A stretch of 64,000 nt of DNA, taken from positions 120,914 through 184,913 of IMG/VR virus record IMGVR_UViG_3300025141_000022; one strand, written 5' to 3'. Both the position numbers and the translations under genes were made by a program. The notes under the pieces were generated by a model. It did not search any database. It saw nothing but the letters and a program-made list of their open reading frames with translations, and was not told the origin of the DNA. Source of the DNA: a virus. Of this stretch, positions 23,064 to 55,172 are shown piece by piece (position 1 is the first letter of the stretch; each line of letters begins with the position of its first letter).

Positions 23064-24009
23064 TGCTTTGAACATGTATTTCAGAGCGTATATTGTAGAT
23101 CCAAGTTTGTCTACAAATGGCCAACCAATTGGCGGCATTAAAGGGTTTACTAAGATTCTACAAAAACAGATTCGTGAAAGCAAGCCTGACGAAGTGATTA
23201 TATGTTGGGATGGCCAAGGCGGCTCTCAAAGGAGGAAGGCTCAAAACAAGGGCTATAAAGAAGGCCGAAAGCCAATTCGCCTTAATCGCGAAATTAGAAA
23301 CCTTTCTGAGAATGAAGAAGTCGCAAACAAAGTTTGGCAGCAGACAAGGCTCATTGAATATTTGAACAACTTGTCCATTATTCAGTTGATGTTACCGGGG
23401 GTAGAGGCCGATGACATCATTAGCTATGTCTGCCAGATGCCGCATTATGCAGATTGGCAAAAAGTGATTGTGTCTTCAGATAAAGACTTTATCCAACTTT
23501 GTGACGACACTACTGTTCTCTATCGGCCAATCCAGAAGCAGGTTCTGAACTCCACTCGGATTGTTGAAGATTATGGAATACATCCAGTTAATTTTGCCAT
23601 GGCCCGCGCCATTGCTGGAGATAAGTCTGACAACCTCCCTGGAGTCGGTGGTGTTGGCTTGCCAACTATCGCTAAGAGGCTTCCATTTCTAAAAGAAAAT
23701 AAAACTTACACAATTGATGACATTACTAATTACTGTAAGGAAGTCGAAAGCAATCTTAAGGTATACAGCACCATTCTTGAAAAAAGAGATTTGATTCATG
23801 ACAATTACAAAATTATGCAACTGTACGCACCCTCTATCAGTCCACAGGGCAAAAACAAGGTAAAGTATGATGTTGAAAATTTTGTTTTTGAATTGAATCA
23901 GACAGAAATCAAGAAGATGATGATAGAAGATGGTTTCGGCGCTCTAGATCTAACTGATTTGTTTACAGCCATGAAAAGAATTGTGGCTGAGAGCAAAAAA
24001 ACAAACTAA
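23041..24009 (+). CDS. 5'-3' exonuclease / flap endonuclease (T4 RNase H / PolI N-terminal-like)
   Basis: LIIDALN, ICWDG, GYKEGRK, GVEADDII, SSDKDFIQL, GDKSDNLPGVGGVG. Confidence 0.92.
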   Translation: MKRLLIIDALNMYFRAYIVDPSLSTNGQPIGGIKGFTKILQKQIRESKPDEVIICWDGQGGSQRRKAQNKGYKEGRKPIRLNREIRNLSENEEVANKVWQQTRLIEYLNNLSIIQLMLPGVEADDIISYVCQMPHYADWQKVIVSSDKDFIQLCDDTTVLYRPIQKQVLNSTRIVEDYGIHPVNFAMARAIAGDKSDNLPGVGGVGLPTIAKRLPFLKENKTYTIDDITNYCKEVESNLKVYSTILEKRDLIHDNYKIMQLYAPSISPQGKNKVKYDVENFVFELNQTEIKKMMIEDGFGALDLTDLFTAMKRIVAESKKTN

Positions 24010-24012
24010 TTA
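24005..24012 (+). promoter_or_regulatory. Putative late-promoter motif ACTAATTA
   Basis: Overlaps the exonuclease stop; 5 nt before ATG 24018, with no SD (possibly leaderless). Confidence 0.5.
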
Positions 24013-24017
24013 TTATC

Positions 24018-24848
24018 ATGATGGACGCTTTTCTAGATAAATGGAAATCATATAAAACTGCCGACTTCGAACTGAAAGAACTTGTAGACCCTGAATCGGT
24101 AGCTACCTCGTCCTTTGAGGTACAGGATAGTCTACATTCCGCTTTTTGGTCAACTGAGGGCAAACTGGACCCAAAAGTTCGAAAACGACTAATCAGAATA
24201 GCTAAGAACTTTATTAAGGACTTGGAACTTTCCGAACTTGAGATAGAAGACCTGACATTTACAGGATCACTAGCGAACTACAACTGGTCTAAATATTCAG
24301 ATATAGACTTGCACATAATTGTTGATTTTTCAGCCCTTGAGGGTGACCAAGAGTTACTCAATAATTACTTTAATGCTAAGAGAGCGTATTGGAACATGAA
24401 GCACGCGATTATGATGCATGACTTCGAAGTGGAAATATACGTTCAAGATTCCAACGAACCACATACGGCATCCGGCTTATACTCCGTATACTTTGATGAA
24501 TGGATCAATACGCCGCAAAAACAAGACCCCGTTATCGATCACACAAATATAAAGGTTAAAGCAGCTGCCTTGATGGATCAGATAGACACAGCACAAGAAA
24601 TGTTCAATGACGGCGCGTACAAAAAGGTTATTGAGTATGTTGAAAAATTGCGAGAAAAAATTAAGAAATTTAGAACCTCTGGTTTAAATAATGGTGGCGA
24701 ATACTCTATAGAAAATTTAGCATTTAAAGCTTTACGAAGAAATGGGTATTTAGGTAAACTATCGGATTTGAGAATTGCGTCATATGATGAATTGATGTCT
24801 CTACATCCCGAAATGATAACCATATTAGTTGGGGAGGATGCAGGATGA
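24018..24848 (+). CDS. Pol-beta-superfamily nucleotidyltransferase
   Basis: FTGSLANYNWSKYSDIDLHIIVD (GS...DxD) and a downstream FEVEIYVQD acidic strand. Confidence 0.8.
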   Translation: MMDAFLDKWKSYKTADFELKELVDPESVATSSFEVQDSLHSAFWSTEGKLDPKVRKRLIRIAKNFIKDLELSELEIEDLTFTGSLANYNWSKYSDIDLHIIVDFSALEGDQELLNNYFNAKRAYWNMKHAIMMHDFEVEIYVQDSNEPHTASGLYSVYFDEWINTPQKQDPVIDHTNIKVKAAALMDQIDTAQEMFNDGAYKKVIEYVEKLREKIKKFRTSGLNNGGEYSIENLAFKALRRNGYLGKLSDLRIASYDELMSLHPEMITILVGEDAG

Positions 24849-25456
24849 ATAAAAAGTGGAAAAACTTCATTAATGAAAAAGTTTGGGCCGATTACGAAGA
24901 GCCCAAAGGTCAATGGAAAGACGTACCATTATCAGATCTTGAACACGATCCCGATGAATATGATTTAACTGACGAAATGTATAACCTAATTGCCACAGCA
25001 TATGCTAAAATCGGCGGTCATGTAAATATTAAAGGCCCAGCAGATGTTCCAGATAAATATGATCAGTGGTCAGCGGTCGATTTGGATGGTGATCCTGAAC
25101 CTGACGCTTTGCGAGTGGCATCAACCAAGCCGGCCGGAACAAAACTTACGGTTTCGGGCCACGATGGTACTCGTATAGCAAAAAATGCCTACACTGACAA
25201 AACTGCAGACATGCTTAAGAAGGATGGATATTTCGCGGAGATGTCTGACGCCATCGCGCACATTATGATTACCAGATACAATATCGAGTCGGTCAACGAT
25301 AAAGAAACAGTCGAGAAAGTTTTAGGCAAATCGGTCGATTGGGTCGGCCCTCACCCAGAGGGTAAATACCCAGAGCACACCGGGTGGTATGTTCGTAAGT
25401 TGAGCGGCAAGGTTAGTCACATGAAGATTATGCTTGGAAAGCCAAAGGTAGGATAA
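24845..25456 (+). CDS. Hypothetical protein with WKNFINE leader (putative virion cargo)
   Basis: 203 aa; ATGA-coupled to the NTase. Confidence 0.55.
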   Translation: MNKKWKNFINEKVWADYEEPKGQWKDVPLSDLEHDPDEYDLTDEMYNLIATAYAKIGGHVNIKGPADVPDKYDQWSAVDLDGDPEPDALRVASTKPAGTKLTVSGHDGTRIAKNAYTDKTADMLKKDGYFAEMSDAIAHIMITRYNIESVNDKETVEKVLGKSVDWVGPHPEGKYPEHTGWYVRKLSGKVSHMKIMLGKPKVG

Positions 25457-25458
25457 AT

Positions 25459-27981
25459 ATGAATATTAACAAATGGCGTAATTTCCTGAATGAAAAGAAG
25501 GAGCGCCTCCTAAGAGAAATTACAGAAGACGAGATGGAACATATTCGTGACGCTCTCGACAATATGGACAGCGGCGAAGACTTAGCTTTTTCAGAGTTGT
25601 TTGGCGACAGGACAAGAATTGTTCTCGACTTTAAAACAGCAGATAGCGAAAGCGAGTTGGGAAGATTTATTAACCTTTTTGACGTGCTTGGATACGAAGT
25701 CGATTGGCAGAAAGGACTAATATCAGCGACAAAAACATTGCAAAACACAAGCCCAGGAGGTATGTCCGACCGCATGCTCGCCATGACACATGGTGGTACT
25801 GGTGGCAAGGAGGATAGACAACGAAAGATCCAGATGAAGATCGGAAAGTTCTTCGCAAAGATTTATGATTTAGCCACAAAACAAAAGAAACTAGTTGATC
25901 AGGTTTTCAATTCTAAAGAAGCAGCGAGCCTCAAGGCTCAATATTCAACCACCGTAACAGGCGAAATGGACTGGTGGAAAAATAAACAAGCAAGGCACCT
26001 GACAGGCAACCACATCGAGGCTGGCTTAGGAGAAGAGTTGGCAGCTAGGCACTATCAGCTATACGATCAGTTGAATATGTACGTTGGCATTGACTATGGA
26101 AATGCTTTTGTAAGAGATCCATCCAGAGCAAAGAATTATATGGAGTACTGGCAAAAGAATGCCGGATACATCAAGAAGAATATAGACAAAGCCACAAGTA
26201 ATGAATACTCTATTGTTGTCACTAGGCACCCTGTTGATATTTTGCGCATGAGCGACTTTAACGCCATCCAATCTTGTCATTCGCCACCATCTAGAGGAGG
26301 TGGAGCACACTATGAGTATTACAAATGTGCAGTAGCCGAAGCTCATGGCCATGGCGCTGTGGCTTATGTGCTCAACACAGAAGACTTGTTGCACGCTACA
26401 AATACTAGTAATATAGACAGCGCAGAACAGGAGATCCAAGATGGTGAACTTTTTGCAGATGATGTCAGAGGTAGCCACGTTGGAGCCAGCATGGATCTAA
26501 CACCAATATCTCGTTTGCGGCTAAGACAAGTTAGACATTACGCATCAGATGATGTTCTTAACTCTCAAATGGGTATGGGCACGCAGATAGCCGTGCCTGA
26601 AATGCGTATCTATGGTGAGAAGATTCCTGGTTTCAGGCAACGCATCATGAAATGGGCGAGAGAGAACCAAGAGCAGGCACTCGCCAACGCCCCTAAAAGA
26701 GATGGCAGAATTGATCTGGGCCGATTCATTAAGTTTGGTGGCTCACAAGAGGACAACCAAATTGCTACTCTTCTCGGAGATTTGTATGGACACGGAAGGC
26801 TTCCGCCGGCGGCACAGAAACAGGTATTTATTGGCAATATTATTAAAGATACTCGCACCGAAGACAATTTGGATGTTAATCTTGTTGGCGGCATCTTAGA
26901 ACAGTATGAACAAGCCTGCGCAGAGATAACAGATGAGTGGAACAATAGAATGCAGGCTTGCGAGGTTGAAGCTAGAGTCGAAGACGATGGTGGCGGCAGC
27001 GTTTACATTGCCCTATATGCTTCCATGATTATCAAGTGGGACGAAGACGATTTTATCGGACTGCCAAATTATATGGACTCGCAATATGCAGTTGGCGAAC
27101 TAAATGATATAGGATACAGTTGGTTTGAAGACAAGGGTATCAGATCCCAAGTTTCTTATAAACGTTCCCAAGGTGAGGACTTCCACAAGACATACATTAT
27201 GCAGAAAATGGACATCGAAGCTGAAATGATACCTGAAATGGCGCAGCAAGCCTATGCTTATGACCCCGATGGGTTTGAGGATTTCTGTGTCGAGGTTAAC
27301 AAAATTGATGACATGTACGATGGCATTAAAGAATACCTTGAGCGCTATTATAAGCGCGAGGGCTATATGGCTGGCGGTCAATTCATGAAGCTGGCATTGA
27401 ATATTGAACATGGTGACCTTGATCCAGATTTCTGGGAAGTTGAGCTTGACGATCCATATGATCCAGAAGAAGCATATGAAGCCATGGCAAAAGTAAACTT
27501 GGAATTGGATCCCGGCTTGTATGTGATGGCATCTGGGTTTCCAATGACACCCGAAGATATGGTAAATGTATTGAACTCCCGAGAGTTCAGAACCAAGTTC
27601 CGCACAGAAGTACTAAAAGAGCCTATGAAATATGTGGGCACAGAAATGTTCTTATCCCTTCACGATGACACCAAAGCTAGTGTAGGCCGTCAGGTCAGCG
27701 CCGATGGATCTGGACGGACCAGCAAGATGTCTAATGCTGTTGACTTCGACTTTGTTATTAAGGTTACACAAGACGATCCCGAGATATTAACTAAGGTTTT
27801 TGCACGGACTGTTGAGTATATGGACGATGAAGGCGAATTTTATGATCTCGCCAACCAAACTATAAAGGGTATAATGAGAGATCAGGTTCGTGATCGATAC
27901 GCGGATCCCAAAGAGGAACCCCAAGGACTTTCCGAGTCTCATAAAGTAATGAACAGTTGGAGAAAGTTTTTAAATGGCTAA
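25459..27981 (+). CDS. Large hypothetical protein, paralog of 51058-54327 (putative virion cargo)
   Basis: 840 aa; WRNFLNE leader; shared block TRHPVDILRMSD...SCHS...YYKCAVAEA...RLRLR...AVPEMRIYG. Confidence 0.65.
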   Translation: MNINKWRNFLNEKKERLLREITEDEMEHIRDALDNMDSGEDLAFSELFGDRTRIVLDFKTADSESELGRFINLFDVLGYEVDWQKGLISATKTLQNTSPGGMSDRMLAMTHGGTGGKEDRQRKIQMKIGKFFAKIYDLATKQKKLVDQVFNSKEAASLKAQYSTTVTGEMDWWKNKQARHLTGNHIEAGLGEELAARHYQLYDQLNMYVGIDYGNAFVRDPSRAKNYMEYWQKNAGYIKKNIDKATSNEYSIVVTRHPVDILRMSDFNAIQSCHSPPSRGGGAHYEYYKCAVAEAHGHGAVAYVLNTEDLLHATNTSNIDSAEQEIQDGELFADDVRGSHVGASMDLTPISRLRLRQVRHYASDDVLNSQMGMGTQIAVPEMRIYGEKIPGFRQRIMKWARENQEQALANAPKRDGRIDLGRFIKFGGSQEDNQIATLLGDLYGHGRLPPAAQKQVFIGNIIKDTRTEDNLDVNLVGGILEQYEQACAEITDEWNNRMQACEVEARVEDDGGGSVYIALYASMIIKWDEDDFIGLPNYMDSQYAVGELNDIGYSWFEDKGIRSQVSYKRSQGEDFHKTYIMQKMDIEAEMIPEMAQQAYAYDPDGFEDFCVEVNKIDDMYDGIKEYLERYYKREGYMAGGQFMKLALNIEHGDLDPDFWEVELDDPYDPEEAYEAMAKVNLELDPGLYVMASGFPMTPEDMVNVLNSREFRTKFRTEVLKEPMKYVGTEMFLSLHDDTKASVGRQVSADGSGRTSKMSNAVDFDFVIKVTQDDPEILTKVFARTVEYMDDEGEFYDLANQTIKGIMRDQVRDRYADPKEEPQGLSESHKVMNSWRKFLNG

Positions 27982-28168
27982 GTTGATATTGCCGTTGCTC
28001 ATCTTGTCTGCATGTCATAAGAAAGCAGCAACGGAGCCCGAAACATATATAATAAGAGATGACGTATTAGAATCTTTAAACGAAGATGCATTTGATTCTT
28101 TGCCAGAGGCAGAACAGGACGATACAGCATCACCGGAAGAACAAGACTTATTAGACGAGGAATCTTAA
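27974..28168 (+). CDS. Small putative lipoprotein
   Basis: MAKLILPLLILSAC lipobox followed by an acidic tail. Confidence 0.5.
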   Translation: MAKLILPLLILSACHKKAATEPETYIIRDDVLESLNEDAFDSLPEAEQDDTASPEEQDLLDEES

Positions 28169-28172
28169 ACTA

Positions 28173-28616
28173 ATGGAACTTATTTCTACTCACTTTTGCA
28201 AGGCTGCAAATGTTGGCTATCATGGTAATTTATTTGGCGGCACAATGCTCGCTTGGCTGGACGAGGCCGGTGCAATATTTGCCTGCCAAGCATGCGACAC
28301 ACCACGGATGGTGACTAAACGGATTTCCGAAGTAGTGTTTAACAAGCCTGTTCGTCCTGGCCAAATCATTAAAATCTATGGTGAAGTTAAAATGGTTGGA
28401 AACCGTTCTATCGTGATTCGGCTGGAAGCCCGGCGACATAGCGTGTACAACGGTTCTCAGAGAACTGTTTTGACCACTGACATGACTTTTGTTCGAATTG
28501 ATGGTGATGGAGAAGCAATTCCTATTAGCGATAAAGTGAAGAGCAAGTATAATGTCGATAACAAGCCTCTCTTGGTGGAGGAACAGGTTGATGCATATGA
28601 ACATGGTGGAGATTGA
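28173..28616 (+). CDS. Acyl-CoA thioesterase (hotdog fold, YciA-like)
   Basis: GYHGNLFGGTMLAWLDEAG...VFNKPVRPG...GNRSI...MTFVRIDGDG. Confidence 0.85.
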   Translation: MELISTHFCKAANVGYHGNLFGGTMLAWLDEAGAIFACQACDTPRMVTKRISEVVFNKPVRPGQIIKIYGEVKMVGNRSIVIRLEARRHSVYNGSQRTVLTTDMTFVRIDGDGEAIPISDKVKSKYNVDNKPLLVEEQVDAYEHGGD

Positions 28617-29020
28617 GTAATATAGTAGTAATTATGCAAACAGACACAGATCAAATAGGCAAAGCAGTGATTATAAAATGGCCACATGTGCTGATTTTAA
28701 AAAGATCTATGCAATTAGAAAAGTTCCCAGGTGAATGGGACTTAGCTGGTGGCCACACTATCGAGGGAGAGGATCCACTCGACGGTGTTTTGAGAGAGGT
28801 ATGGGAAGAGACAGGGTTTGTGTTATCTAATCCCGAAAAACTTTACAGTGATGGTAGAGAAGCATATTATAAAGTAATTGTTAACAGCGAGCAAGAAGTT
28901 CGATTAAGCAATGAGCACGAAGAGTATGTTTACGCCACACCAGACGAGATAGAATCTTATGAATTGCCTGATAAATATTTAAAGGCAATTAGATATGCGC
29001 TAAAAGACATTTTAGCTTGA
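28613..29020 (+). CDS. NUDIX hydrolase
   Basis: GGHTIEGEDPLDGVLREVWEETG Nudix box. Confidence 0.9.
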   Translation: MSNIVVIMQTDTDQIGKAVIIKWPHVLILKRSMQLEKFPGEWDLAGGHTIEGEDPLDGVLREVWEETGFVLSNPEKLYSDGREAYYKVIVNSEQEVRLSNEHEEYVYATPDEIESYELPDKYLKAIRYALKDILA

Positions 29021-29045
29021 CAAAGCGATATAAACCGCTTATAAT
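29017..29045 (+). promoter_or_regulatory. Perfect-consensus sigma70 promoter for the helicase/RNR operon
   Basis: TTGACA-N17-TATAAT. Confidence 0.85.
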
Positions 29046-29073
29046 AAATAACAATCTTTAATACGAGGGATAC

Positions 29074-30435
29074 ATGGCAGAAGGACTCAACTTTGGTCAT
29101 TACGGAAAAAACTTCCAAGAAGGGCTATGCCAGCTAATTTTACAAGATCGGCCTTTTGCAGATCAGATAACCGAGGTATTGGATATTGATTTTCTGGAGT
29201 TAAAGTATCTTCAGATTTTCACGAAAAAGATTTTTGAGTACAGGGAAAAGTACTCTGTCCACCCAAGCTACAAGATCATGACTACGATTTTGCGCTCCGG
29301 TCTTGAAGAAGAGAACGAAGCTAGCAAGATTCAAGTTAGGGACTTCTTTACTCGTATTTATAACACAGAGGTAGAAGGTGCTGATTATATTAAGGAAACC
29401 GCTTTAGACTTCTGCAAGAAGCAAGTTCTTAAGGCCGCTATGATAAAATCGGTTAAACTTTTGAAGAATTCGTCGTATGATGAGATTGCGGCCGAAATTG
29501 ATAAGGCTTTAAAATTGGGCAGTGATACCAACTTTGGTTATGATTATATTGTCGATTTTGAGGAAAGGTTCCAAATTAAAGCTCGCTCACCCGTTACAAC
29601 AGGATGGAAAGAGATAGATGAAATCTGTAAAGGTGGCCTAGGCAGCGGCGAACTTGGAGTTGTTATTGCGCCTACTGGTGCAGGAAAATCAATGGTACTG
29701 GTCCATATCGGCACAGAAGCACTAAAAGCTGGCAAAACTGTTATACACTATACTTTGGAGTTGGCAGATACAACTATTGGAACTAGATATGATAGCTGCC
29801 TGACATCTGTTCCGCTACAGACAATTTTTTCTTTCAAAGAACAAATTTATGAAGCAGTGCAGGACATCCCCGGTAGTCTTATTATTAAAGAGTATCCAAC
29901 CAAATCGGCGTCTACTCAAACTATTAAAATGCATCTAGAAAAACTAAGACAAAGAGATATAACCCCAGACATGATCATTGTTGATTATGGCGATCTTTTA
30001 AAGCCAGTTACCGCTTTTAAAGAAAAAAGAATGAACTTGGAATCTATTTACGAAGAACTCCGCGCAATATCGCAGGAGAATAACTGCCCTGTTTGGACAG
30101 CATCTCAAACTAATCGTTCAGGGTTGAATGCGGAGGTGATCACGATGGAGTCTATTAGCGAAGCTTTTAACAAATGCTTTGTTTCAGACTTTATATTTTC
30201 TGTGTCTAGAACGATTGAAGATAAGACTAACAATACAGGAAGAATTTTTATTGCCAAGAACAGAAATGGACCCGATGGATTAATATATCCGATTTTTATG
30301 GATCCCGGCCGAGTTAAAATTGAAGTGCTACCTCCGACCGGTGAAACCCCTGGAGAGGTTGCAGCTAAGACTGCAAGAGATCAGTCTGCACTTCTCAAAG
30401 AAAAATACAAGAAATATAGGAGTAAAGAAGAATGA
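29074..30435 (+). CDS. Replicative DNA helicase (DnaB / T4 gp41-like)
   Basis: IAPTGAGKS Walker A, YTLEL, IIVDYGDL, WTASQTNRSG, IAKNRNGPDG. Confidence 0.92.
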   Translation: MAEGLNFGHYGKNFQEGLCQLILQDRPFADQITEVLDIDFLELKYLQIFTKKIFEYREKYSVHPSYKIMTTILRSGLEEENEASKIQVRDFFTRIYNTEVEGADYIKETALDFCKKQVLKAAMIKSVKLLKNSSYDEIAAEIDKALKLGSDTNFGYDYIVDFEERFQIKARSPVTTGWKEIDEICKGGLGSGELGVVIAPTGAGKSMVLVHIGTEALKAGKTVIHYTLELADTTIGTRYDSCLTSVPLQTIFSFKEQIYEAVQDIPGSLIIKEYPTKSASTQTIKMHLEKLRQRDITPDMIIVDYGDLLKPVTAFKEKRMNLESIYEELRAISQENNCPVWTASQTNRSGLNAEVITMESISEAFNKCFVSDFIFSVSRTIEDKTNNTGRIFIAKNRNGPDGLIYPIFMDPGRVKIEVLPPTGETPGEVAAKTARDQSALLKEKYKKYRSKEE

Positions 30436-33218: not shown

Positions 33219-33220
33219 AA

Positions 33221-42411: not shown

Positions 42412-42987
42412 ATGAGCACCAAAAAACCGTTACTAAATGAGAGCGTGGTTCGTAGGTTCTTAAAGCTTGCTGATGTTAAGCCCATCAATGAAGAGTGGTA
42501 TACATCAATTTATGAGCAAGAAGATGAGGAGCCCCTACCCGGCGAAGGTGAGGAAGATGCCGCACTGGAGCCCATGGAACTGGGAGAACCCGAAGCAGAG
42601 ATGCCAGAAGACGAATTGGCGGATCCCGTTGGAGATGAACCAGCTGCCGATCCAATGAGTGAAGAAGGCGTCGAGGAGTTGGTGTCCGCTATTGCCGATG
42701 CTATCCAAAGCGTGACCGGCGTAGAAGTTGGGGTCGAAGGCGGCGAAGGGGGTGAGGAACTGCCCGCCGAAGAGCCTGAAGCTGGTCTGGAAGAGCCCGC
42801 CGAACTCGGCGCAGAAGCGCCCATGGGCGACGAAGGACTTCCACCCGAAGGGGGCGCAGATCTTGGCGCAGCCGAAGAAGAGCCAGCCAATAGAGGCGGC
42901 GGCATGTACGAGGGTCAACTTACCGATGACGTTATCAACGAGGTCACCCGTCGAGTAGCAGCCCGCCTGATGAAAATCAACAGATAA
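42412..42987 (+). CDS. Highly acidic low-complexity protein (scaffold / internal-head-like)
   Basis: LLNESVVRRFLKLA leader, E/P/G-rich body, VINEVTRRVAARL end; SD AGGAG. Confidence 0.6.
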   Translation: MSTKKPLLNESVVRRFLKLADVKPINEEWYTSIYEQEDEEPLPGEGEEDAALEPMELGEPEAEMPEDELADPVGDEPAADPMSEEGVEELVSAIADAIQSVTGVEVGVEGGEGGEELPAEEPEAGLEEPAELGAEAPMGDEGLPPEGGADLGAAEEEPANRGGGMYEGQLTDDVINEVTRRVAARLMKINR

Positions 42988-44729: not shown

Positions 44730-46547
44730 ATGAAAAAAGAATTAGACACATTAATAACTGAATTTTATACGAAGGATAGCGAAAAGGTTGGATTTTCGCA
44801 AATTTGCCAGATTATTGAGGAGATTTTAGATGATCCTGCTCTTGATAAAATTATTTCAGAGGCACAAGAGAAAAGCCTCGCAGAACGCAAATTTACACCA
44901 AAGGGGGCAAAGGCCAGAGAACGAATCTTGCGACTCCCCAACGTAGTTCCGACCGAAATTTCAGTTGGACAAAGACCCGATAGTGAAGACCGCGCACAAT
45001 TTGAATTGTGGATGCAGAACATCGGAATGGATAGCGGGACAGACAGTAGCGCAGTGGCACAAAAGCTAAAAGCGATCACTCAGTTCTTTGACAGTCCAGA
45101 AGCCAACTTACGAGATGCAACAATCGCACAGACGCTTTCTTACTTGATGTTTTTAAATCAGTTCGTATGGATGCTTAAAGAGTTCAATGCTTCCGTTGCT
45201 GGGTTCTTGTGGGAGCCCTTCTTGGCTTCTTTGTTTGGTGGCAAGTCTAGACAGGTGCCGACCAGTGAAGGTGATATTGCCGACATTAGAATTGATACAG
45301 GCGAAGGCGATGCGCCAATTAGCTTAAAGATTCTAAATAAATCCGGTGCCGTAAAAGGTAGCTTTACTGACTTGGTAGATCATTTTTCTAAGGATTCATC
45401 GTGGGGCAGCGGCCCGGCCGAGATGAGGTATATTGTTGTCGTTAAGACACAAAGTTCCGAGCAAAAAACTGTATCGGCTGCTGTTTTTTGGGAATTCAAT
45501 ATTAACGCGGATAGTTTCTTTGATTGGATTGGAAATGTTCATTATCTTGAGACTGTTGAATCGGTACAGACAAGTTTCTCACTTCAAGATGCAGACAAGA
45601 AGCCATGGTTAAAGACGGGCTCCAACGCAAAGCCAGGAGCCGAAGGTAATTATGTTTGGATTCGTCATGCAACCCCAGGCAAACTTGGAGGTAGAAGTCC
45701 ACAACCAGCACGGGCTTCGTGGTTACGCCTCGCACAGATTATCGATAAGGGAGTTAGGCCCATGCCAAAGCCAGCAGATGCATTTGAGCAGATTAACCTA
45801 CAGGGAGACATAGCTGATCCTTCAGCAAAGTTGTCCGCAGAAATTTCAGCGTACAAGGCAGGCGGCAAAGCAGGTGGAAAGACACCCGGTGCTAAAGTTA
45901 GAGCTTCTTACAAAAAGACTGGTGGCACTGAAGACGATATGTTTGGTGCCGGCACTAAGGACACGGACGCTCTTTGGGGTGGAGCCGAACAATTGAATGC
46001 GTGGAGTGTTCTTGCACAGAAATTAAGAGAACAGCTGGGCGATCTCGACGGCGGCAAAAGATTTTTTAAAGCTGTAGCAGGAGACTTTTCTGGAATAGAA
46101 TCAGCCGCTGCCGAGCTTGGCCTATCGGGCAACGCACCGGGATATTCCACAGGCGCTAGCGCAATAGAAACAGATGAAGAGGTGCTGTCTGAGGGTGACG
46201 AAGGATCAGGCGGAAAGCAATTCCATATTAAGCCAGCGCACTATACCAGACTTGGTACAAATCTAGGTACTCTTAAGATCACGCCGGGTGCAGTCGAGGA
46301 CTTCTTTACTCTCTCTGCGCAACAATTGAACGAAGATTTGATAACAATGTTTAATGCTTTAGCTGATTTGACAGACAATATCGGCAGGTTCTTTTTGACT
46401 GATTGTAGTGGCGGCACTGGTGAGGATACTGCTTGCTCCCCAGCAGATGAAGCTGCCAGAAACACAGCAGGTGGCCAAGCGATAAGAGATGCGCGGGTTC
46501 TAGAAGACGCAGTGTCAGCATCGGTTAAAGGAATGACCGATAAATAA
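44730..46547 (+). CDS. Hypothetical protein with a possible PD-(D/E)XK nuclease core
   Basis: AGFLWEPFLASLFGG...GDIADI...PISLK; 605 aa. Confidence 0.45.
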   Translation: MKKELDTLITEFYTKDSEKVGFSQICQIIEEILDDPALDKIISEAQEKSLAERKFTPKGAKARERILRLPNVVPTEISVGQRPDSEDRAQFELWMQNIGMDSGTDSSAVAQKLKAITQFFDSPEANLRDATIAQTLSYLMFLNQFVWMLKEFNASVAGFLWEPFLASLFGGKSRQVPTSEGDIADIRIDTGEGDAPISLKILNKSGAVKGSFTDLVDHFSKDSSWGSGPAEMRYIVVVKTQSSEQKTVSAAVFWEFNINADSFFDWIGNVHYLETVESVQTSFSLQDADKKPWLKTGSNAKPGAEGNYVWIRHATPGKLGGRSPQPARASWLRLAQIIDKGVRPMPKPADAFEQINLQGDIADPSAKLSAEISAYKAGGKAGGKTPGAKVRASYKKTGGTEDDMFGAGTKDTDALWGGAEQLNAWSVLAQKLREQLGDLDGGKRFFKAVAGDFSGIESAAAELGLSGNAPGYSTGASAIETDEEVLSEGDEGSGGKQFHIKPAHYTRLGTNLGTLKITPGAVEDFFTLSAQQLNEDLITMFNALADLTDNIGRFFLTDCSGGTGEDTACSPADEAARNTAGGQAIRDARVLEDAVSASVKGMTDK

Positions 46548-46548
46548 C

Positions 46549-46577: not shown

Positions 46578-46597
46578 ATAAACACAATGGAGGAAAA

Positions 46598-48166: not shown

Positions 48167-48195
48167 TCATAATTGTCGCACTATATATTAACGTC

Positions 48196-48507: not shown

Positions 48508-48513
48508 ATTTAT

Positions 48514-48542
48514 TTGACAAACTATGGCATTTCTGTTATAGT
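48514..48542 (+). promoter_or_regulatory. sigma70-type promoter
   Basis: TTGACA-N17-TATAGT; the ORF-track TTG start at 48514 is the -35 box itself. Confidence 0.7.
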
Positions 48543-48567
48543 ATATAATGACAGTATAGGAGAAAAC

Positions 48568-49053
48568 ATGTCAGAAGAAAATGAGCAACAGCCGTCCGTT
48601 GACGGGCTAACCAGAGTGACTCTACAATACTCTGTTGCTTTGCAGGATGTTCCACGGGAAGTTTACCGCATGATACAAGACGTGGCTCAACAGTGTGCTA
48701 GCACTGCCAAGGACTTGCAAGATGCAAGCGCGACCTTGTTGGGAGAAACACAAAAATTAGGAGAAGTGCTTAGACAAAACGCTGTCACCCGAGAGACACT
48801 AAAAGAAATATGTTTTAGACTCGATGATCATGATGCTATTTTATATAGTTACTACAAGGCCATGCTCGCGGCTGAAGCTGCATCCGAAGATGTTCCAGCG
48901 CCCAGTCAACCAATAATTGAAAAGACTAGGGCCGTACCTCCCTCTCAATTGCCTTCCATCGAGCCAAACATAAGACTGACAGAGAGAGAGCCTGAATTGT
49001 CAGAGATTGACGTTTATGAGATTAACAGCGGAGAAGATTTATCTAATGACTAA
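48568..49053 (+). CDS. Hypothetical protein (start ATG 48568)
   Basis: SD AGGAG before ATG 48568; RVTLQYSVALQDVP. Confidence 0.55.
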   Translation: MSEENEQQPSVDGLTRVTLQYSVALQDVPREVYRMIQDVAQQCASTAKDLQDASATLLGETQKLGEVLRQNAVTRETLKEICFRLDDHDAILYSYYKAMLAAEAASEDVPAPSQPIIEKTRAVPPSQLPSIEPNIRLTEREPELSEIDVYEINSGEDLSND

Positions 49054-49075
49054 TGGTTGAAGAAAGGAGAACAAC

Positions 49076-49300
49076 ATGATGAACATGGCAAAGGGCGAAT
49101 TAGCATATCTCCCATCGGAGGTTCGCTTATACCAGACAGACCCGCAGGGTGTGCCAACTAAAACAATAACTATCAAAAGGCCCCGAAGCGTCTTAATACT
49201 GGAAAAGATGCCAGACGTAAGTTCATGTATTGTTCTTTATAACGGAGAACAATGGCACGTCGATAAAACACACACATATAACTTAACGGAGAAACGGTGA
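49076..49300 (+). CDS. Small SH3/KOW-like protein
   Basis: AKGELAYL...VLILEK...IVLYNGEQWHV. Confidence 0.5.
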   Translation: MMNMAKGELAYLPSEVRLYQTDPQGVPTKTITIKRPRSVLILEKMPDVSSCIVLYNGEQWHVDKTHTYNLTEKR

Positions 49301-49602
49301 TTAAACTAGTTGAAGTACGAAGAAACAACAGGTACACAAATAATAAAGCTAACGAAGAACAATATACGCTGCATGAGGTATACATTAACCCATCTCATGT
49401 GGTAGCAATCAGAGAAGATGAACGAGCACTACAGCATCTAAGAGAAGGACTAATGCCTTCCGGCCTGGATGCTCGTCAAGGGTTTACAAAGCTGCATTTG
49501 CAGCGCGGTCAGAATGGACTGGATATAACAGTAATAGGGGATCCTGGGGTTATTGAAACCAAGATGATGACATCCATGCAGCGCGTACTTCTAAAGGGGT
49601 AA
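49297..49602 (+). CDS. Hypothetical protein, weak resemblance to FlbD/SwrD-type small proteins
   Basis: MIKLVEV...VYINPSHVVAIRE...TKLHL...ITVIG. Confidence 0.4.
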   Translation: MIKLVEVRRNNRYTNNKANEEQYTLHEVYINPSHVVAIREDERALQHLREGLMPSGLDARQGFTKLHLQRGQNGLDITVIGDPGVIETKMMTSMQRVLLKG

Positions 49603-49604
49603 GT

Positions 49605-50057
49605 ATGGAAATTATTTGTCATTTTAAGGACATGCGAGAGTATGGCGATCTTGTTCCCGAGGCTAAAAAGACAAAACTTGGCCGCTACCATGGCTCCTAC
49701 TATCCTATAGATGGTTTCGGGGTAACGTGTTGGGCTGTTGGTGCCTATCTGGTTGTACCTGAGTACAATAAATATATTGAGCAGGAGCTAACTGATGAAC
49801 AAATTGTCGAGGCTTGCTTGGAGTACTTGAACAAGCCGCCACCACGAAAGAAATATCAGCGCCGAGTAAGCCAGCCCCTTTACGGAACATTAAGTCTGCA
49901 CCGGTGCAGAAGCAAGGTGCCGGCAGAAGAGAACGAAGGCAATCAATGTTATGAAGTTCTATTGTTTACGGACAGAAGAAAAAATAAACACTTTTGGAGC
50001 GAAGGTCAGATAAACTATGCTCCTAGAAAACGAAAAAGAAAAAAGGCAAAGAAATGA
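49605..50057 (+). CDS. Hypothetical protein with basic C-terminus
   Basis: 150 aa ORF in a coupled run. Confidence 0.55.
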   Translation: MEIICHFKDMREYGDLVPEAKKTKLGRYHGSYYPIDGFGVTCWAVGAYLVVPEYNKYIEQELTDEQIVEACLEYLNKPPPRKKYQRRVSQPLYGTLSLHRCRSKVPAEENEGNQCYEVLLFTDRRKNKHFWSEGQINYAPRKRKRKKAKK

Positions 50058-50254
50058 TTTGGACAGTTGTTACAATTAACCCTGCTCTCCAAAGAGCAGA
50101 GTATCATGTGTTTGATTCCTTTCCTCATGACGGAGAGGCAGCTTACACGCAGGCACAAAGTGCATTACCTAACTCGGTAATCGTGGCTTTGATTAAGGGT
50201 ACGCACAAGACCTCCACATATGTGCCAAACAAAGCAATTAACGTGTTTTGTTAG
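50054..50254 (+). CDS. Hypothetical protein (66 aa)
   Basis: ATGA-coupled ORF. Confidence 0.5.
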   Translation: MIWTVVTINPALQRAEYHVFDSFPHDGEAAYTQAQSALPNSVIVALIKGTHKTSTYVPNKAINVFC

Positions 50255-50610
50255 GAGCGGCATTGTATAATATACTTATTGGTTGCCTGCTTTTCATACT
50301 TGGCCAAACGCTAGTTTGGTTCCAACTAAACTCTCAGTTTGTTTGGGATTGGTGGAAAGATAGACCCGTCCCAGCAATTATAATCTTTTCAGTACCCGCT
50401 AGCTTTTGTTTTTGGTACGGAGTGAGAATGGTCGTTGGAGAAATGAATGAGCTTTGGGGACCGAGACTGCTTATATTTGGCATGTCTTACTTAACTTTTC
50501 CACTATTAACGTGGTATTATATGAATGAGAGCATGTTTACGCCGAAGACGTTGGTGTGTGTCATACTCTCATTCGCAATCGTTGCGATACAACTTTTATG
50601 GAGAACATGA
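50248..50610 (+). CDS. Four-TM membrane protein (DMT/EamA half-domain-like)
   Basis: Four hydrophobic segments in 120 aa. Confidence 0.55.
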   Translation: MLGAALYNILIGCLLFILGQTLVWFQLNSQFVWDWWKDRPVPAIIIFSVPASFCFWYGVRMVVGEMNELWGPRLLIFGMSYLTFPLLTWYYMNESMFTPKTLVCVILSFAIVAIQLLWRT

Positions 50611-50966
50611 TGACAGTTGAGAAACCATGGGGTCACGAAATTAGATGGGCCGCGAACGAGAAGTACATAGGCAAGATCCTTTTTATAAAGAAGGGACACA
50701 GACTTTCAAAACAATATCACGAACAGAAAGATGAGGCTATCTATGTGCTCGATGGCTCGCTCATGATAGAGTTAGGCCCCACAGTCGAAGAGATTGGCAT
50801 CACCGAAAGTGTCAAGTTCACGCTCACTAAGGGACAGGCCCAGCGGATCCGTCCCGGTGTCGTGCATCGGTTTTGCGCTTTGTCGAAAGACGTGACATTG
50901 ATTGAAGTTAGTACGCCAGAGATGGAAGATGTAGTCAGAATTGAGGACGACTACAGTAGAAAATGA
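50607..50966 (+). CDS. Cupin-fold protein (mannose-6-P isomerase type II C-terminal-like; start ATG 50607)
   Basis: VEKPWGHE...KILFIKKGHRLSKQYHEQKDE...GVVHRF...LIEVST. Confidence 0.8.
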   Translation: MMTVEKPWGHEIRWAANEKYIGKILFIKKGHRLSKQYHEQKDEAIYVLDGSLMIELGPTVEEIGITESVKFTLTKGQAQRIRPGVVHRFCALSKDVTLIEVSTPEMEDVVRIEDDYSRK

Positions 50967-50985
50967 ATATAAAAGTAGCTATATC

Positions 50986-51021
50986 AGAGGGGTTCTTATT
51001 AAAGTGCCCCTTTTGTTTTTT
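50986..51021 (+). terminator. Rho-independent terminator
   Basis: AGAGGGGT...GCCCCTTT stem with a TTTTGTTTTTT tail. Confidence 0.7.
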
Positions 51022-51025
51022 GATA

Positions 51026-51033
51026 ACTAATTA
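51026..51033 (+). promoter_or_regulatory. Putative late-promoter motif ACTAATTA
   Basis: Directly after the terminator; SD GGAG and ATG 51058 follow. Confidence 0.55.
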
Positions 51034-51057
51034 TTTAATGAATTGGAGTATATTACA

Positions 51058-54000
51058 ATGAACTTTTATGAGAAGTGGCGCACATTTGTGAGCCAAGTTG
51101 AGCTACGAGAATCTGCCAAGGAGGCCATCCTTGAAAGAACTGAATTACTAAACGAAATCTCTCGCGAATCAGCAGACAAAATCTATGACTGGATGGCTTC
51201 TGCTGGCGCTAGCGATTACTCATTTAATGATCTATTCGGTGGTGCCATGCGTATCGCCTTTCCGCTAGCTACTGACGATCAGCGCAAGCTCAAAAAAGCT
51301 GTCACAGCCCTTGCAGATTCCGGCTGGTCAGTTGGTGAAATGGTGCCGTGGGATGGAGGAATGCACAGTTCAAAGAAGTTCCCCATCAAGAAAGTCAAAC
51401 AAAAGCGTACCCGGCTGGCTGACGCTGGCGGTGGAGAGTATGAGGAAGAAATCGAAATAGCCGATCTGGTCCTTTCGCGAACATACACAAAGGTTATCCC
51501 TGCTGGACCCCGCAAAGGCGAAGAGATTCAGCGCACAGACAAGACCAGCATGAGCAAAGCCCTGGCCAAACTCGTCAAAGGGGGCAAGCTTGAACAAGAG
51601 ATATATGATTGGTGGCAGAAGACTCAAGTATTCTACACCAAGGATAATAACTGGCAAGACATCGAAGGCATGTTTTCTGGCGACATAGACAATGATGTAG
51701 TTATTGTTTCTCGCCACCCAGTTGATGTTTTGCGAATGAGCGACATGGGAAGTATTCGTTCGTGTCATTCTGAAGGATCGAGCTATTTTAAGTGTGCAGT
51801 AGCCGAGGCTAAGGGTCATGGCCCAATCGCATATGTGGTGCCCGAGGTCGAGTATGAAAGATTGCTCCGCGAAGAGCACAAAGAGTACCAAACAGCAGAC
51901 GATCCAGAGGCTGCATATGATGTGGATGCCCCAGCCGAGGAGCCGTCAAAGAAAAAATTATCAGACTTTGACGACGAAGAGATTTTTAGAGACAGACAAA
52001 GACAAGTCCGAGGTATCACGCCTAAAGCCCGTGTCCGTCTTAGAAAGTTTGTACACTCATACTCCCCCTCAGAACCCGATGAAGCCTTTGCGGTTCCAGA
52101 ATTAAGAACATATGGCGCTGCCCCCCCTGGCTTTACTGATGCCGTTTTAAACTGGGCGTGGGACAATCAAAAGAAAATGTTTGAGCTTGGTACCGATGTC
52201 TATGGTGCTCCAAACCCATATGATCTTACAAGATATGGTGGCTCATGGGAAGACAATCCAGACGGCGAGTTACTAAGAAAGTTTTTTGGAAAGGGAATTC
52301 CAGATTTCACAAATTATAATACCCTCAGAAATGTCCATCATGATGAAGAGGTCGAAGAAGACGAGGCCGAGCAGTTATTCAATGAATATGAAGAGCGCAT
52401 CGACGAGCTTAATGATCATGCCAATTCAACCTTGCAACATTCCAGTTGTCATGGATCTGTTGAAGACAATGGTGAAGGCATGCCCTATGTCTATGCCAGC
52501 GGCGACGTTACGATTGAGATTCCAATAAAATGGGATGGACCAATGAGCGACGAGCCCAATGGATATTATTGGCACAAGGATGACCGCGACATGGCCATCA
52601 TTCCAAAGTCTTGGGGCTCAGATTATCAATCCAAAAGAGCATTTGAGAGGGCAATCGAAGATAAGATTGATGTATACTCCGAAGAAACTAACTGGGAGAT
52701 TCGCGAACAAAAAGGTGGAGCTAGAGGAGAGCCAGATAAAACATATATTCTAGAGATCACCATGCAGTTCAATTGCGACGACTGCGACGATCCAGATTCA
52801 TATGAAAGCTTTATCGATTATATTGAAAATGATATTGATTCCAACTATGACGAGATAAGAGAGAAGATTCGACGCTCCTTGGTAGAAGAAACTTATATAC
52901 CACCTGACGACTGGGACAATCTTCAAGATGAGATTGAAGAGATGGGAGAGCAGCTAAAGAACTTTACTGTTATCGGTGATGATCCAGACAGTCCAGACGG
53001 CGAGGCGTGGTTCACATTACAAGGCGAAGGGTTTAGTGGCACACCAGATTCTCACATAACCACAGGTGCTGAGTTTCCATGGAAGACACTTTGGGGCACT
53101 CGTCATCATAATCGAGGATGGTTTGCCAGGGCATTTGACCCGCCGCATATAACGACCGGCGATCTGCGACATATGACCAGAACAGTATTTGGGATTACTG
53201 GCGATCATGTTAACAGAGGGTATCAAAACCTAGAAGGTTCCAAGCTGAAAGTCTTGTTCATGGAGAAGCTGCACGCACTTGAGAAAGCTGCGGGAGATTG
53301 GGCTTCAAGTCAAATGGCTTTGGACTTTGGTGAGAAATATAAAGCGCCAGCGTTCAAAGGAGTTGATCTTGCAAAAGATACAAAACTAACAATCGGCTTC
53401 CATATGGAAGAGAACAGGTTTGTTCAGGACGTGGGGTATATACCCGCCAGCCCCGTAAACATTGGCTATGGCATGAAGATTGTAGTTAGCCAAGCCAACA
53501 GCCGCGAAGAATTGCTGGGCGCATTTGAATTTGTAAGGTTTGTTGATAAACATGCCGATATGGTTCATAAAGCAATGGTCGAGTCGGTCGAAGACATGAC
53601 AGCCCAAGCAGTTTCGATAGGCCGCGAGGATCGCGCCCATGTCGGTGATATTAAAAGAAAGTATGAGGCTCTGATTACCAAGATTAAAGAATCCGATCTA
53701 GAACAAGGTGACAAATCCTATTGGATTGATCGTGCAAACACAGACATTCTCGGAGGGTTTCTGGGTCACAGACCGGCCAATCCTACGGCCCGAAATCCCG
53801 GTCCAGATGCGAGCAATGTCATAGGGCTATCGAAAAGCATTGATGACGCAATACAACAGCAAGCAATCGACGCAGAACGCCAGTCGTGGGATGATGCCAT
53901 GAAAGATGAGGAAGATGAGCCTACACAGCAGGAGCGATGGGTGGACGAGGAAGACGAGGACAAGGTTCGCGAAGCTATACAAAAAGCCATCTCAGTAGTT

Positions 54001-54327
54001 AACGAAAAGCAAGATCCTCACTATTCACAATATACCTATGAGTTGATCATAGATTGTATTGTCGATAAGGTCAAGGGAGGCAACCTAGCACAAACTTTGT
54101 CCGACATTAGAGGGATCCCTTATGTCACAACAGTGGCCTCAGAGCCTGTGCCGGGGAAAGAAACTCCCCAGCAGTGGGCGACAATGTTAAAGATAAAGTT
54201 TGTACGGGCTGATCGCTTGGGTCCGTATAAGTTTATGGCGTCTTCGTTAGTGCCCAAACTCAAGACAGTTCGCGGCCTTTCTAACATTAAGATCAGGACC
54301 GTTAAGAAGGTGGAGGAGTATTCATGA
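51058..54327 (+). CDS. Very large hypothetical protein, paralog of 25459-27981 (putative virion cargo)
   Basis: ~1089 aa; WRTFV...LRE...ILE...LLNE leader; shared SRHPVDVLRMSD...SCHS block. Confidence 0.65.
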   Translation: MNFYEKWRTFVSQVELRESAKEAILERTELLNEISRESADKIYDWMASAGASDYSFNDLFGGAMRIAFPLATDDQRKLKKAVTALADSGWSVGEMVPWDGGMHSSKKFPIKKVKQKRTRLADAGGGEYEEEIEIADLVLSRTYTKVIPAGPRKGEEIQRTDKTSMSKALAKLVKGGKLEQEIYDWWQKTQVFYTKDNNWQDIEGMFSGDIDNDVVIVSRHPVDVLRMSDMGSIRSCHSEGSSYFKCAVAEAKGHGPIAYVVPEVEYERLLREEHKEYQTADDPEAAYDVDAPAEEPSKKKLSDFDDEEIFRDRQRQVRGITPKARVRLRKFVHSYSPSEPDEAFAVPELRTYGAAPPGFTDAVLNWAWDNQKKMFELGTDVYGAPNPYDLTRYGGSWEDNPDGELLRKFFGKGIPDFTNYNTLRNVHHDEEVEEDEAEQLFNEYEERIDELNDHANSTLQHSSCHGSVEDNGEGMPYVYASGDVTIEIPIKWDGPMSDEPNGYYWHKDDRDMAIIPKSWGSDYQSKRAFERAIEDKIDVYSEETNWEIREQKGGARGEPDKTYILEITMQFNCDDCDDPDSYESFIDYIENDIDSNYDEIREKIRRSLVEETYIPPDDWDNLQDEIEEMGEQLKNFTVIGDDPDSPDGEAWFTLQGEGFSGTPDSHITTGAEFPWKTLWGTRHHNRGWFARAFDPPHITTGDLRHMTRTVFGITGDHVNRGYQNLEGSKLKVLFMEKLHALEKAAGDWASSQMALDFGEKYKAPAFKGVDLAKDTKLTIGFHMEENRFVQDVGYIPASPVNIGYGMKIVVSQANSREELLGAFEFVRFVDKHADMVHKAMVESVEDMTAQAVSIGREDRAHVGDIKRKYEALITKIKESDLEQGDKSYWIDRANTDILGGFLGHRPANPTARNPGPDASNVIGLSKSIDDAIQQQAIDAERQSWDDAMKDEEDEPTQQERWVDEEDEDKVREAIQKAISVVNEKQDPHYSQYTYELIIDCIVDKVKGGNLAQTLSDIRGIPYVTTVASEPVPGKETPQQWATMLKIKFVRADRLGPYKFMASSLVPKLKTVRGLSNIKIRTVKKVEEYS

Positions 54328-55172
54328 ACGACAAATGGAAGAAGTATTTATCCGAGGACGCTGGGGACATGCCACAGATATATTGTGATATGGATGGCGT
54401 ACTGGTAGACTTTGAACAGGGGATCGTTCAGCAGATTAACAGCGACCTAAAGATGCTTGAGGCACGCGGCAGCGATAAAAAGTTGGAAGCCTTGCGAGCC
54501 GCACTAAGTGAACTTGGAAGAGATTACGTTACTATAGATGACTTGCGTGGAAAGTCCATGGCAGTCAAGTCATTGAGAAATTATATGTATGCTCGCGTTG
54601 GAGATGATGAAGAGTTTTGGGCTAACCTGCCTTGGACTGAAAACGGGAGGGAGTTGTGGAGTTACATATCACAATTCAAGCCTTATATATTGACATCACC
54701 GATGCAAAAAGGTTCCGAACGAGGGAAAGAAATGTGGATTAAGATTAACCTTGATCCGATATACAAGCCAGAGAGAATTCATATGCACCATCAAAAATAT
54801 AGATGGGCCAAGGAGGATGGACGACCGAATATCTTAATTGATGATTGGACAAAAAACACCGTCCCATGGGCCAACTCTGGCGGCATCGCGATACTCCACA
54901 GAGATAGTAATCTCGGTGCAACTCTAGAGTCTTTGCAACAAGCGATGGAGGGAGATCCATTGAACGAAAGAGATTATCAAAAAGAGTCCGAGAAGATTAA
55001 AAATTATAACAAAGACCGGCATGCCTACCTAGGAACAGGTGCGAATAAATATACTGATTCTGGTGGTGCAAAACCCTCGCTTCCGACTACAAGAAGTGAC
55101 GGAAACCAACTCGGACAGTTGCCGGGTCAAGCCCGCCGCGATCTTAAGCCTAAAGGCCCTAAGAGCAAATAA
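54324..55172 (+). CDS. HAD-family 5'(3')-deoxyribonucleotidase-like protein with WKKYLSE leader
   Basis: IYCDMDGVLVDF, ILTSP, K, ILIDDWTKN. Confidence 0.8.
   Translation: MNDKWKKYLSEDAGDMPQIYCDMDGVLVDFEQGIVQQINSDLKMLEARGSDKKLEALRAALSELGRDYVTIDDLRGKSMAVKSLRNYMYARVGDDEEFWANLPWTENGRELWSYISQFKPYILTSPMQKGSERGKEMWIKINLDPIYKPERIHMHHQKYRWAKEDGRPNILIDDWTKNTVPWANSGGIAILHRDSNLGATLESLQQAMEGDPLNERDYQKESEKIKNYNKDRHAYLGTGANKYTDSGGAKPSLPTTRSDGNQLGQLPGQARRDLKPKGPKSK

Follow-up and report, generated by a model that had tools for sequence, protein, structure and literature searches.

A tryptophan-type leader peptide in an uncultured T4-like phage, a probable variant of the T4 capsid-targeting propeptide

Why should proteins with unrelated bodies begin with nearly the same short peptide? 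The question is raised by five genes, at 24018, 24845, 25459, 51058 and 54324, in a 64,000-nucleotide stretch of viral DNA (the window), which forms the final 64 kb of a 184,913-bp IMG/VR virus record rated complete (IMGVR_UViG_3300025141_000022, positions 120,914 to 184,913). Positions given below are those of the window unless they are marked as genome positions. The answer that we favor, with a probability of roughly 0.7, is that this common start represents a tryptophan-type form of the capsid-targeting propeptide (CTS) of phage T4. Under this reading, the tag would be a short amphipathic helix with the core W-[RK]-x-[FY]-[LI] that docks the newly made protein, through its aromatic face, onto the assembling core or shell of the prohead; a gp21-type S77 protease would then cut after the Glu of the adjoining [LI]-x-E and free the mature enzyme within the head. 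The tagged proteins most likely travel in the virion and would enter the cell with the DNA, as the internal proteins (IPs) and Alt of T4 do.

The shared leader and the proteins that carry it

Nearly all genes of this genome lie on the + strand, and the called proteome comprised 207 + strand proteins with 56,647 residues. The strict motif W-[RK]-x-[FY]-[LIV]-x-E was matched eight times in the whole genome, always within the first 17 residues of a protein, with no match in the remaining 50,437 residues of the proteome. If matches fell at random, the chance of finding all eight within the first 30 residues of proteins (11% of residues) would be ~2e-8. Two looser forms, at 24018 and 51058, bring the tagged set to ten proteins, five in the window and five upstream, so that the five shared leaders picked out by an earlier inspection of the letters (the sequence-only reading) belong to a larger group. 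Proteins B (24845), C (25459) and E (54324) bear W-[RK]-x-[FY]-[LI]-x-E at residues 5–12; in D (51058) W-R-T-F-V is followed by L-R-E, and in A (24018) W-K-S-Y is followed by L-K-E. The leader ends directly in [LI]-x-E in eight of the ten proteins, and in A and D an L-x-E stands 5–9 residues beyond. What is expected of a CTS of about 10–19 residues, a short N-terminal peptide common to unrelated bodies with L/I-x-E at the boundary between leader and mature body, is therefore found in these ten proteins. Identical leader residues are encoded by differing codons at synonymous sites among the ten copies, which indicates that it is the peptide that is conserved, by selection on the peptide and not as a DNA repeat.

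The five tagged proteins of the window, their leaders and the promoter motifs ahead of them are all on the + strand. The operon 24018–25459 is headed by CTAATTA, a candidate late-promoter core, at intergenic positions 24006–24012, 12 nt before the start codon of A. Protein A (24018–24848; 276 residues) has a 21-residue leader (24018–24080) of the looser form, and its body begins where the alignment with its orthologue begins. A matches phrog_36119 (E 3e-45), a family that carries no named function, and gives borderline Pfam scores for NTP_transf_2 (20.8 bits against a cut-off of 21) and DUF6932 (20.9 against 27). With G-S ... D-I-D visible in the sequence, it is best read as a Pol-beta-type nucleotidyltransferase. 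Protein B (24845–25456; 203 residues) has an 11-residue W-type leader (24845–24877) that ends in I-N-E, and the Glu at residue 11 is nearly invariant in an alignment of homologues (alignment A2). The AlphaFold2 (AF2) model of B has a mean predicted local distance difference test (pLDDT) score of 94.5, residues 1–10 alone being uncertain (55), and all top Foldseek matches of this predicted structure are GNAT acetyltransferases (probability 0.97–1.0, template modeling (TM) score 0.4–0.57, E from 4e-4). A GNAT-like fold is the best reading of the model, and the label of 'putative nuclease' that had been given to this protein was rejected on the Foldseek result.

Protein C (25459–27981; 840 residues) is tagged at both ends and has at least 640 homologues, none of them named. 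Its N-terminal leader (25459–25494) ends in L-N-E and is modeled by AF2 as a helix at residues 3–12 followed by a low-confidence linker. Searches for the fold of C gave no convincing structural counterpart, with matches of TM 0.1–0.2 only by Foldseek against the PDB, a best Z of 5.3 by VIA-align wide, which is below the meaningful level for an 840-residue model, and by Atlas a weak PcfJ lead alone (0.77). Protein D (51058–54327; 1,089 residues) has an 18-residue leader and a GGAG box upstream of its ATG at 51058; a second intergenic CTAATTA, again a candidate late-promoter core, heads its operon 51058–54324 at 51027–51033. C and D are paralogues (BLASTP, E 6e-39 over about 800 residues including the leader), as had been supposed of these two giant proteins, and the other bodies are unrelated. 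Protein E (54324–55172; 282 residues) has an 11-residue W-type leader that ends in L-S-E. Its HAD profile match (phrog_2643, E 2e-21) and the D-M-D-G-V at residues 22–26, after the leader, which conforms to the D-x-D-x-[TV] nucleophile, uphold the earlier assignment as a HAD nucleotidase, here described as 5'(3')-deoxyribonucleotidase-like. Pfam and NCBIfam returned no match for E, and seven IMG/VR homologues of E bear the canonical tag.

The other five tagged genes lie in tandem at genome positions 90738–94548 (L002:2739-6549), 30 kb before the window. They are headed by CTATTTA, and their products have E-N-W-R-x-[FY]-L-x-E starts. The first is kinase-like (two weak matches, Pfam and PHROG), and no family was found for the other four. 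No match to Pfam, NCBIfam or PHROGs was obtained for B, C and D, for these four upstream proteins or for the head-module proteins adjoining the protease.

The tag extends well beyond this genome. A degenerate DNA pattern for E-N-W-R-x-F-L-x-E gave at least 135 matches in 120 stretches of IMG/VR. Among the matches listed, a start codon lies exactly five codons upstream in 93 of 135 and within 15 codons in 128 of 135; the consensus is M-K-L-L-[LMFI]-E-N-W-R-[KR]-F-L-[KNT]-E, with conservation collapsing right after the last Glu; and the 122 bodies fall into about 60 clusters without a BLAST link, which include GNAT, zeta-toxin-like kinase, 2H-phosphoesterase-like and HAD proteins. The tag is very rare in cellular genomes, as a 42-nt tag pattern had one match in 185,579 bacterial and archaeal genomes (one per species), on a 1.5-kb metagenome-bin contig. 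The same pattern had 57 matches in 1.08 Mb of IMG/VR stretches that had themselves been chosen by its 27-nt core, so the two match densities are not directly comparable. Across about 1,280 open reading frames (ORFs) of relatives, the density of the motif per 1,000 residues is 3.7 at N-termini, a value inflated by the choice of loci for an N-terminal motif, 0.71 in the last 12 residues and 0.059 internally. The tag strings had no match in literature full text, and no papers linking CTS to marine or uncultured T4-like phages were found, the coverage being incomplete.

Single relatives carry the tag on a tRNA-ligase-CPD (2H-phosphoesterase-like) protein with a weak Pfam match (L009:12066-12728), on a zeta-toxin-like P-loop kinase (L036:12749-13726), on a GNAT protein within the head module (L027:2360-3076), for which tblastn found no cultured phage with a counterpart, and on a protein with an H-x-T-x motif and no Pfam match (L068:1713-2171). 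Roles in anti-defence and takeover are known for enzymes of the 2H-phosphoesterase-like, zeta-kinase and GNAT types. Some relatives have the tag between two domains or at a C-terminus directly before the next tagged gene (L053, with an internal tag at residue 203 of 452; L023, at the C-terminus of a 611-residue protein; L024; L141), an arrangement that suggests fused cargo which the protease would separate.

That the product of 25459 also ends in the motif had been seen from the letters, and the W indeed lies seven residues from the C-terminus of C. The C-terminal tag (27937–27978, + strand) consists of L-S-E at residues 824–826 and W-R-K-F-L at 834–838; D lacks it. Among the best 120 of the at least 640 homologues of C, W-[KR]-x-[FYW]-[LIVM] with the W 6–8 residues from the end is present in 103, and the N-terminal W motif is kept in 62. 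The 20 residues upstream of the C-terminal W hold [LIVMF]-x-E in 90 of the 103, versus a background of 31%, and the Glu stands 5 or 7 residues before the W in 70 of these 90. The C-terminal tag has no final Glu and the L-x-E is upstream of it, so that address (W motif) and cut (L-x-E) appear to be separable. To judge from these homologues, the predicted cut site is always on the body side of the C-terminal tag, and the C-terminal copy is not a relic. Among the relatives, the density of the motif in the last 12 residues is also 12 times that in protein interiors, and a few other families have a C-terminal copy. AF2 models both tags of C (pLDDT 79.5) as terminal helices attached through low-confidence linkers, and the flexible linker at 819–828 holds L-S-E. 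The determinants of docking and cutting would thus overlap in the N-terminal tag and would be separate in the C-terminal tag of the 840-residue family, in which L-x-E, 5–7 residues and the W motif at the very end succeed one another.

Relation to T4 propeptides and the head module

The products of T4 ipII and ipIII start MKTYQEFIAE and that of ipI starts M-K-T-F-K-E-F (read from NC_000866). The IP propeptides are 10–19 residues long; targeting acts mainly via residues 4 and 7 and processing via residues 8 and 10, and gp21 cleaves after L/I-x-E (PMC9026906). In the tag, exactly these four functional positions are occupied by the invariant W, F/Y, L/I and E, and the sequence comparison places the invariant W and F/Y at two aromatic positions three apart, like T4 residues 4 and 7.

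The exchange of leaders on the same body is the strongest evidence for a link with the T4 CTS. Among the 106 homologues of B, a common body with the start K-K-W-x-D-[YF] is preceded by the W tag, by a T4-like leader such as MKTFKQFIRE, by an arginine-rich leader, by a leader of the M-R-L-x-x-x-Q-L-R type or by none, and the leaders end in hydrophobic-x-E before the same body, with a Glu that is nearly invariant across all leader types. On a T4-like contig, the B homologue P0177 and its neighbor gene both start M-K-T-F-K-..., like T4 ipI and ipIII. This T4-like version of B also adjoins genes for Metallophos (PF00149) and SMC_N (PF02463) proteins, which may be read as gp47/gp46-like. The orthologue of A in genome G2 (47% identity) aligns from residue 19 and has the T4-like 10-residue leader M-K-A-F-K-E-Y-L-E-E, and the orthologue of E in genome G4 (41% identity) lacks a leader, its first residue standing seven ahead of the HAD motif. 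The tag is thus interchanged with bona fide T4-like CTS on the same protein. This exchange on orthologous bodies and the portability of the tag across about 60 families accord with the transferable code proposed by the sequence-only reading. Most tagged proteins have no counterpart in G4 or G2, although ~40% of all ORFs have one; such fast turnover is a known trait of T-even IP loci.

A T4-type head module and a gp21-type S77 protease are both encoded in the phage genome. Profile matches identify the portal gene (Portal_T4, E 2.6e-76), the major capsid protein (Gp23, E 4.3e-70) and the prohead protease (Peptidase_S77, PF03420, E 1.7e-33; genome 109744–110352); this protease and the four matching CTS positions give substance to the analogy with T4 gp21 that had been drawn from the letters. 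The S77 protease is present in eight of ten large tag-bearing contigs and in all four complete ones, and the two contigs without it are 59% and 68% complete. In 21 relatives with a portal ~70% identical, a tagged gene lies inside the terminase–portal–protease–capsid module, immediately downstream of the protease or two genes upstream of it, and the same positions in T4 are those of the core proteins gp67, gp68 and gp22. In the present phage, the region around the protease (genome 109199–111361; L003:6200-8362) holds, after it, a gene with a swapped-aromatic tag variant, F-R-K-W-I-x-E-E, whose homologues in relatives bear the canonical tag, and, before it, a gene with R-Y-F-L-N-E close to the N-terminus.

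The closest cultured phages are remote, namely Microcystis phage Mel-JY01 (capsid identity 37%) followed by the Flavobacterium immuto phages and Rhodothermus RM378. Megablast of 24005–30000 against GenBank phages found no DNA-level relatives, tblastn against GenBank phages found no match for protein C, and the sole tblastn matches of protein B were three uncultured huge-phage records. Motifs akin to the tag occur in the structural proteins of the head. The scaffold C-terminus (genome 119200–119251) reads ...R-W-R-Q-L-A-G-I-E-K, with similar tails in Mel-JY01 and immuto, and the capsid propeptide (genome 119269–119400 and window 1–218) contains L-L-x-K-W ... L-L-E-G, which is kept in T4, Mel-JY01, immuto and a cyanophage. 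For all of these, capsid maturation is predicted to occur at [LIV]-x-E with A or S next, and the predicted site in the present phage is L-R-E. From these sequences, the tag may dock by mimicking the scaffold tail or the capsid propeptide. We offer tentatively the more specific proposal that the W tag copies the phage's own head-assembly docking motifs (scaffold R-W-R-Q-L and capsid L-L-x-K-W), so that a protein tagged at either end would be incorporated as structural subunits are, the protease later setting it free.

Several known systems invite comparison. The tag resembles the CTS of T4 IPs in being a short N-terminal peptide on unrelated, dispensable and fast-changing proteins, in its two aromatics three apart followed by I/L-x-E, in the company of a gp21-type S77 protease and a T4-type head module and in the tandem arrays of tagged genes. 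Unlike the T4 peptide M-K-T-Y-Q-E-F-I-A-E, the tag, of 11–14 residues (up to 21), contains a basic residue and an invariant Trp, is found on about 60 families that include enzymes of 200–1,100 residues and not only small basic proteins, has a C-terminal form and is known here from sequence alone. T4 Alt is an ADP-ribosyltransferase that is packed in the head and processed by gp21 at both termini (PMC9026906). It thereby parallels the enzyme cargo with propeptides at both termini proposed for the 840-residue family, but there is no sequence similarity, and the Alt termini are not copies of one motif. The ejection (E) proteins of phiKZ, 201phi2-1 and SPN3US are head-internal and cut after Glu by gp175-type proteases, and the phiKZ-type propeptides are thought to target proteins to the prohead (PMC5694885, PMC9026906). 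Common to both systems would be many head-internal proteins cleaved after Glu by a diverged gp21 homologue; phiKZ-type propeptides are mostly >100 residues long with S/A-x-E, whereas the leaders here have 11–21 residues with L/I-x-E. Neither a long propeptide nor a gp175-type protease was found here, as the protease matches the T4 S77 model directly. The C-terminal cargo-loading peptides of encapsulins and the coat-binding tails of phage scaffolds are terminal peptides that address proteins to the inside of an HK97-fold shell. They are like the tag in using a short terminal peptide as an address, and the scaffold here has a W-R-containing tail, but no homology is claimed, and the peptide here would apparently be cut off afterwards.

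Promoter units and alternative explanations

The genome has 66 copies of CTANTTA, a candidate late promoter, on the coding strand versus 15 on the other strand, and 28 copies lie in the intergenic 8% of the genome, usually 12–90 nt before a start codon. Scaffold, sheath, tube and baseplate genes have the motif ahead of them, as do all three operons with tagged genes (genome 90738, window 24018 and window 51058), in agreement with the earlier observation that units with tagged genes begin as the sheath, tube and baseplate genes do. Counted by gene, ten of 102 genes in CTANTTA units are tagged versus none of 99 in sigma-70-like units (Fisher 0.0016), which would favor the predicted excess of leaders in late-motif units over sigma70-driven genes.

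A number of points weigh against reading the tag as a CTS. The predicted excess dissolves when the three independent CTANTTA units are counted (P ~0.24), and in relatives CTANTTA is upstream of 18% of tagged ORFs versus 17% of other ORFs, without enrichment; with three independent units only and no enrichment in relatives, late timing of the tagged genes is consistent with the reading but is a weak argument. The support consists of sequence comparison and models for a phage that is an uncultured IMG/VR record without a close cultured relative. The Glu is often followed by E or K, as opposed to A or S in T4 substrates. A and D have no Glu at the canonical place and would require a second site a few residues on, and 58 of the 120 C homologues are without the N-terminal W motif. 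Finally, cargo of up to 1,089 residues would have to exit via the tail.

These points leave room for other explanations, one of which retains entry into the head and denies delivery. The tagged proteins could act in the prohead as core or scaffold accessories that are degraded or expelled at maturation. In relatives, tagged genes occupy the positions of the T4 core proteins gp67, gp68 and gp22, the scaffold has a W-R motif in its C-terminal tail and the T4 core proteins are likewise gp21 substrates (PMC9026906). We consider this unlikely, as many of the bodies are recognizable enzymes (HAD, nucleotidyltransferase, GNAT, kinase-like, zeta-toxin-like kinase and 2H-phosphoesterase-like), most tagged genes are outside the head module, and the tagged proteins differ from one close relative to another and are dispensable, in which they resemble T4 IPs and not core proteins. 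It is also rather improbable that the tag is an uncut docking peptide for some other late-phase cytoplasmic complex or regulator, with no role in the capsid. An amphipathic helix could bind many partners, nucleotidase and nucleotidyltransferase cargo would suit nucleotide metabolism, and binding and cleavage by the tag are steps that we only infer. Such a role would, however, not explain why the boundary Glu is invariant across four leader types, why a separate L-x-E stands ahead of the C-terminal tag, why the tag is exchanged for T4-like CTS leaders, why it is located in the head module and why it co-occurs with the S77 protease.

The similarity could, very improbably, merely reflect recombination or conservation of the translation-start region, the peptide itself not being under selection. 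Recombination hot spots are known at T-even IP loci, and gene 27974 begins within the final codons of the C-terminal tag; this explanation is contradicted by the synonymous-site variation among the ten copies, and the peptide is kept over proteins no more than 40% identical and at C-termini, its conservation following residue class and not DNA. The reading of the tag as a tryptophan-type CTS therefore remains the one that we prefer. With it, the sequence-only reading keeps its short W leaders, C-terminal copy and motif-headed units, together with the likeness to the T4 CTS, the protease and the portability, and loses the nuclease identity, the promoter association and three leaders described as '(L/I)xE-rich'.

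Neighboring genes and the meaning of the tag

The three leaders in question are those of 42412, 44730 and 7745 (all + strand), which had been counted as related. Richness in (L/I)xE was rejected as a criterion, as [LI]xE falls within the first 30 residues of 80 of the 207 proteins (39%), and the three N-termini are at this background level. The 118-residue protein of the tail module at 7745–8101, between the tube gene and a large tail gene, has an N-terminal region that aligns as conserved body with its G4 orthologue and is not a leader. The 605-residue protein at 44730–46547 offers no leader evidence, its N-terminus not being conserved in the G2 homologue. The 191-residue late-unit protein at 42412–42987 has no W-type tag; its N-terminus has L-N-E and then R-R-F-L-K-L-A. 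The segment R-R-F-L-K-L-A-D-V is kept in the G4 orthologue and resembles the C-terminal tail of the scaffold, a likeness by which it may represent another type of shell-binding motif.

Several other proteins, at genome 10722, 21732, 95909, 96991 and 111364, begin with a different leader, M-K/N-x-x-x-L-[KR]-x-x-[IL]-x-x-x-[IL]-x-E. This second type stands in place of the W tag on some homologues of protein B and may be another capsid address.

The window further encodes the tail sheath, a DnaB-type helicase, ribonucleotide reductase, DNA polymerase III alpha and a GroEL-type chaperonin. The segment 29074–38935 contains a bacterial-style replication set (DnaB-type helicase and DNA polymerase III alpha with a PHP domain) in a T4-type phage, and no family-B (gp43-type) polymerase was seen in the genome parts examined. 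A 64-residue lipoprotein-like gene (L-S-A-C lipobox) at 27974–28168 starts within the last codons of the C-terminal tag of C. Other signal-peptide or lipobox-like N-termini are encoded in late-motif units, one at 21930 (21930–22340) and three consecutively at 55334, 56076 and 57068 (55334–57496). A long array of mini-genes with M-K-V-G-D-L-V starts occupies 58477–63770 and genome 111–1345; as it leaves the end of the record and continues at its start, a circularly permuted or terminally redundant genome is suggested.

The general principle is already known from T4, so that a known mechanism would be extended here and not a new one introduced. What is new is the tag of tryptophan type, the range of about 60 families, large enzymes among them, over which an uncultured lineage has spread it, the conserved C-terminal form whose putative cleavage site stands apart, and the direct evidence from swapped leaders. 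If the tag works as proposed, the head cargo that is delivered at infection, a class of proteins otherwise found solely by virion proteomics of cultured phages, would become readable from sequence for uncultured phages. The tagged set is large, turns over quickly and is rich in anti-defence and takeover kinds of enzyme, which would make the tag a practical handle for finding them. By splitting the 'address' from the 'scissor mark', the C-terminal form would lend itself to cleanly designed experiments and to the loading of T4-like heads with foreign proteins. If, in addition, the tag does copy the phage's own docking motifs, it would be a searchable address label for the pre-packed, injected effectors of an abundant uncultured aquatic T4-like lineage. 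The effector set would then amount to ~60 or more families, including kinase-, GNAT-, 2H-phosphoesterase-, zeta-kinase- and nucleotidase-like enzymes, which resemble tools of anti-defence or takeover.

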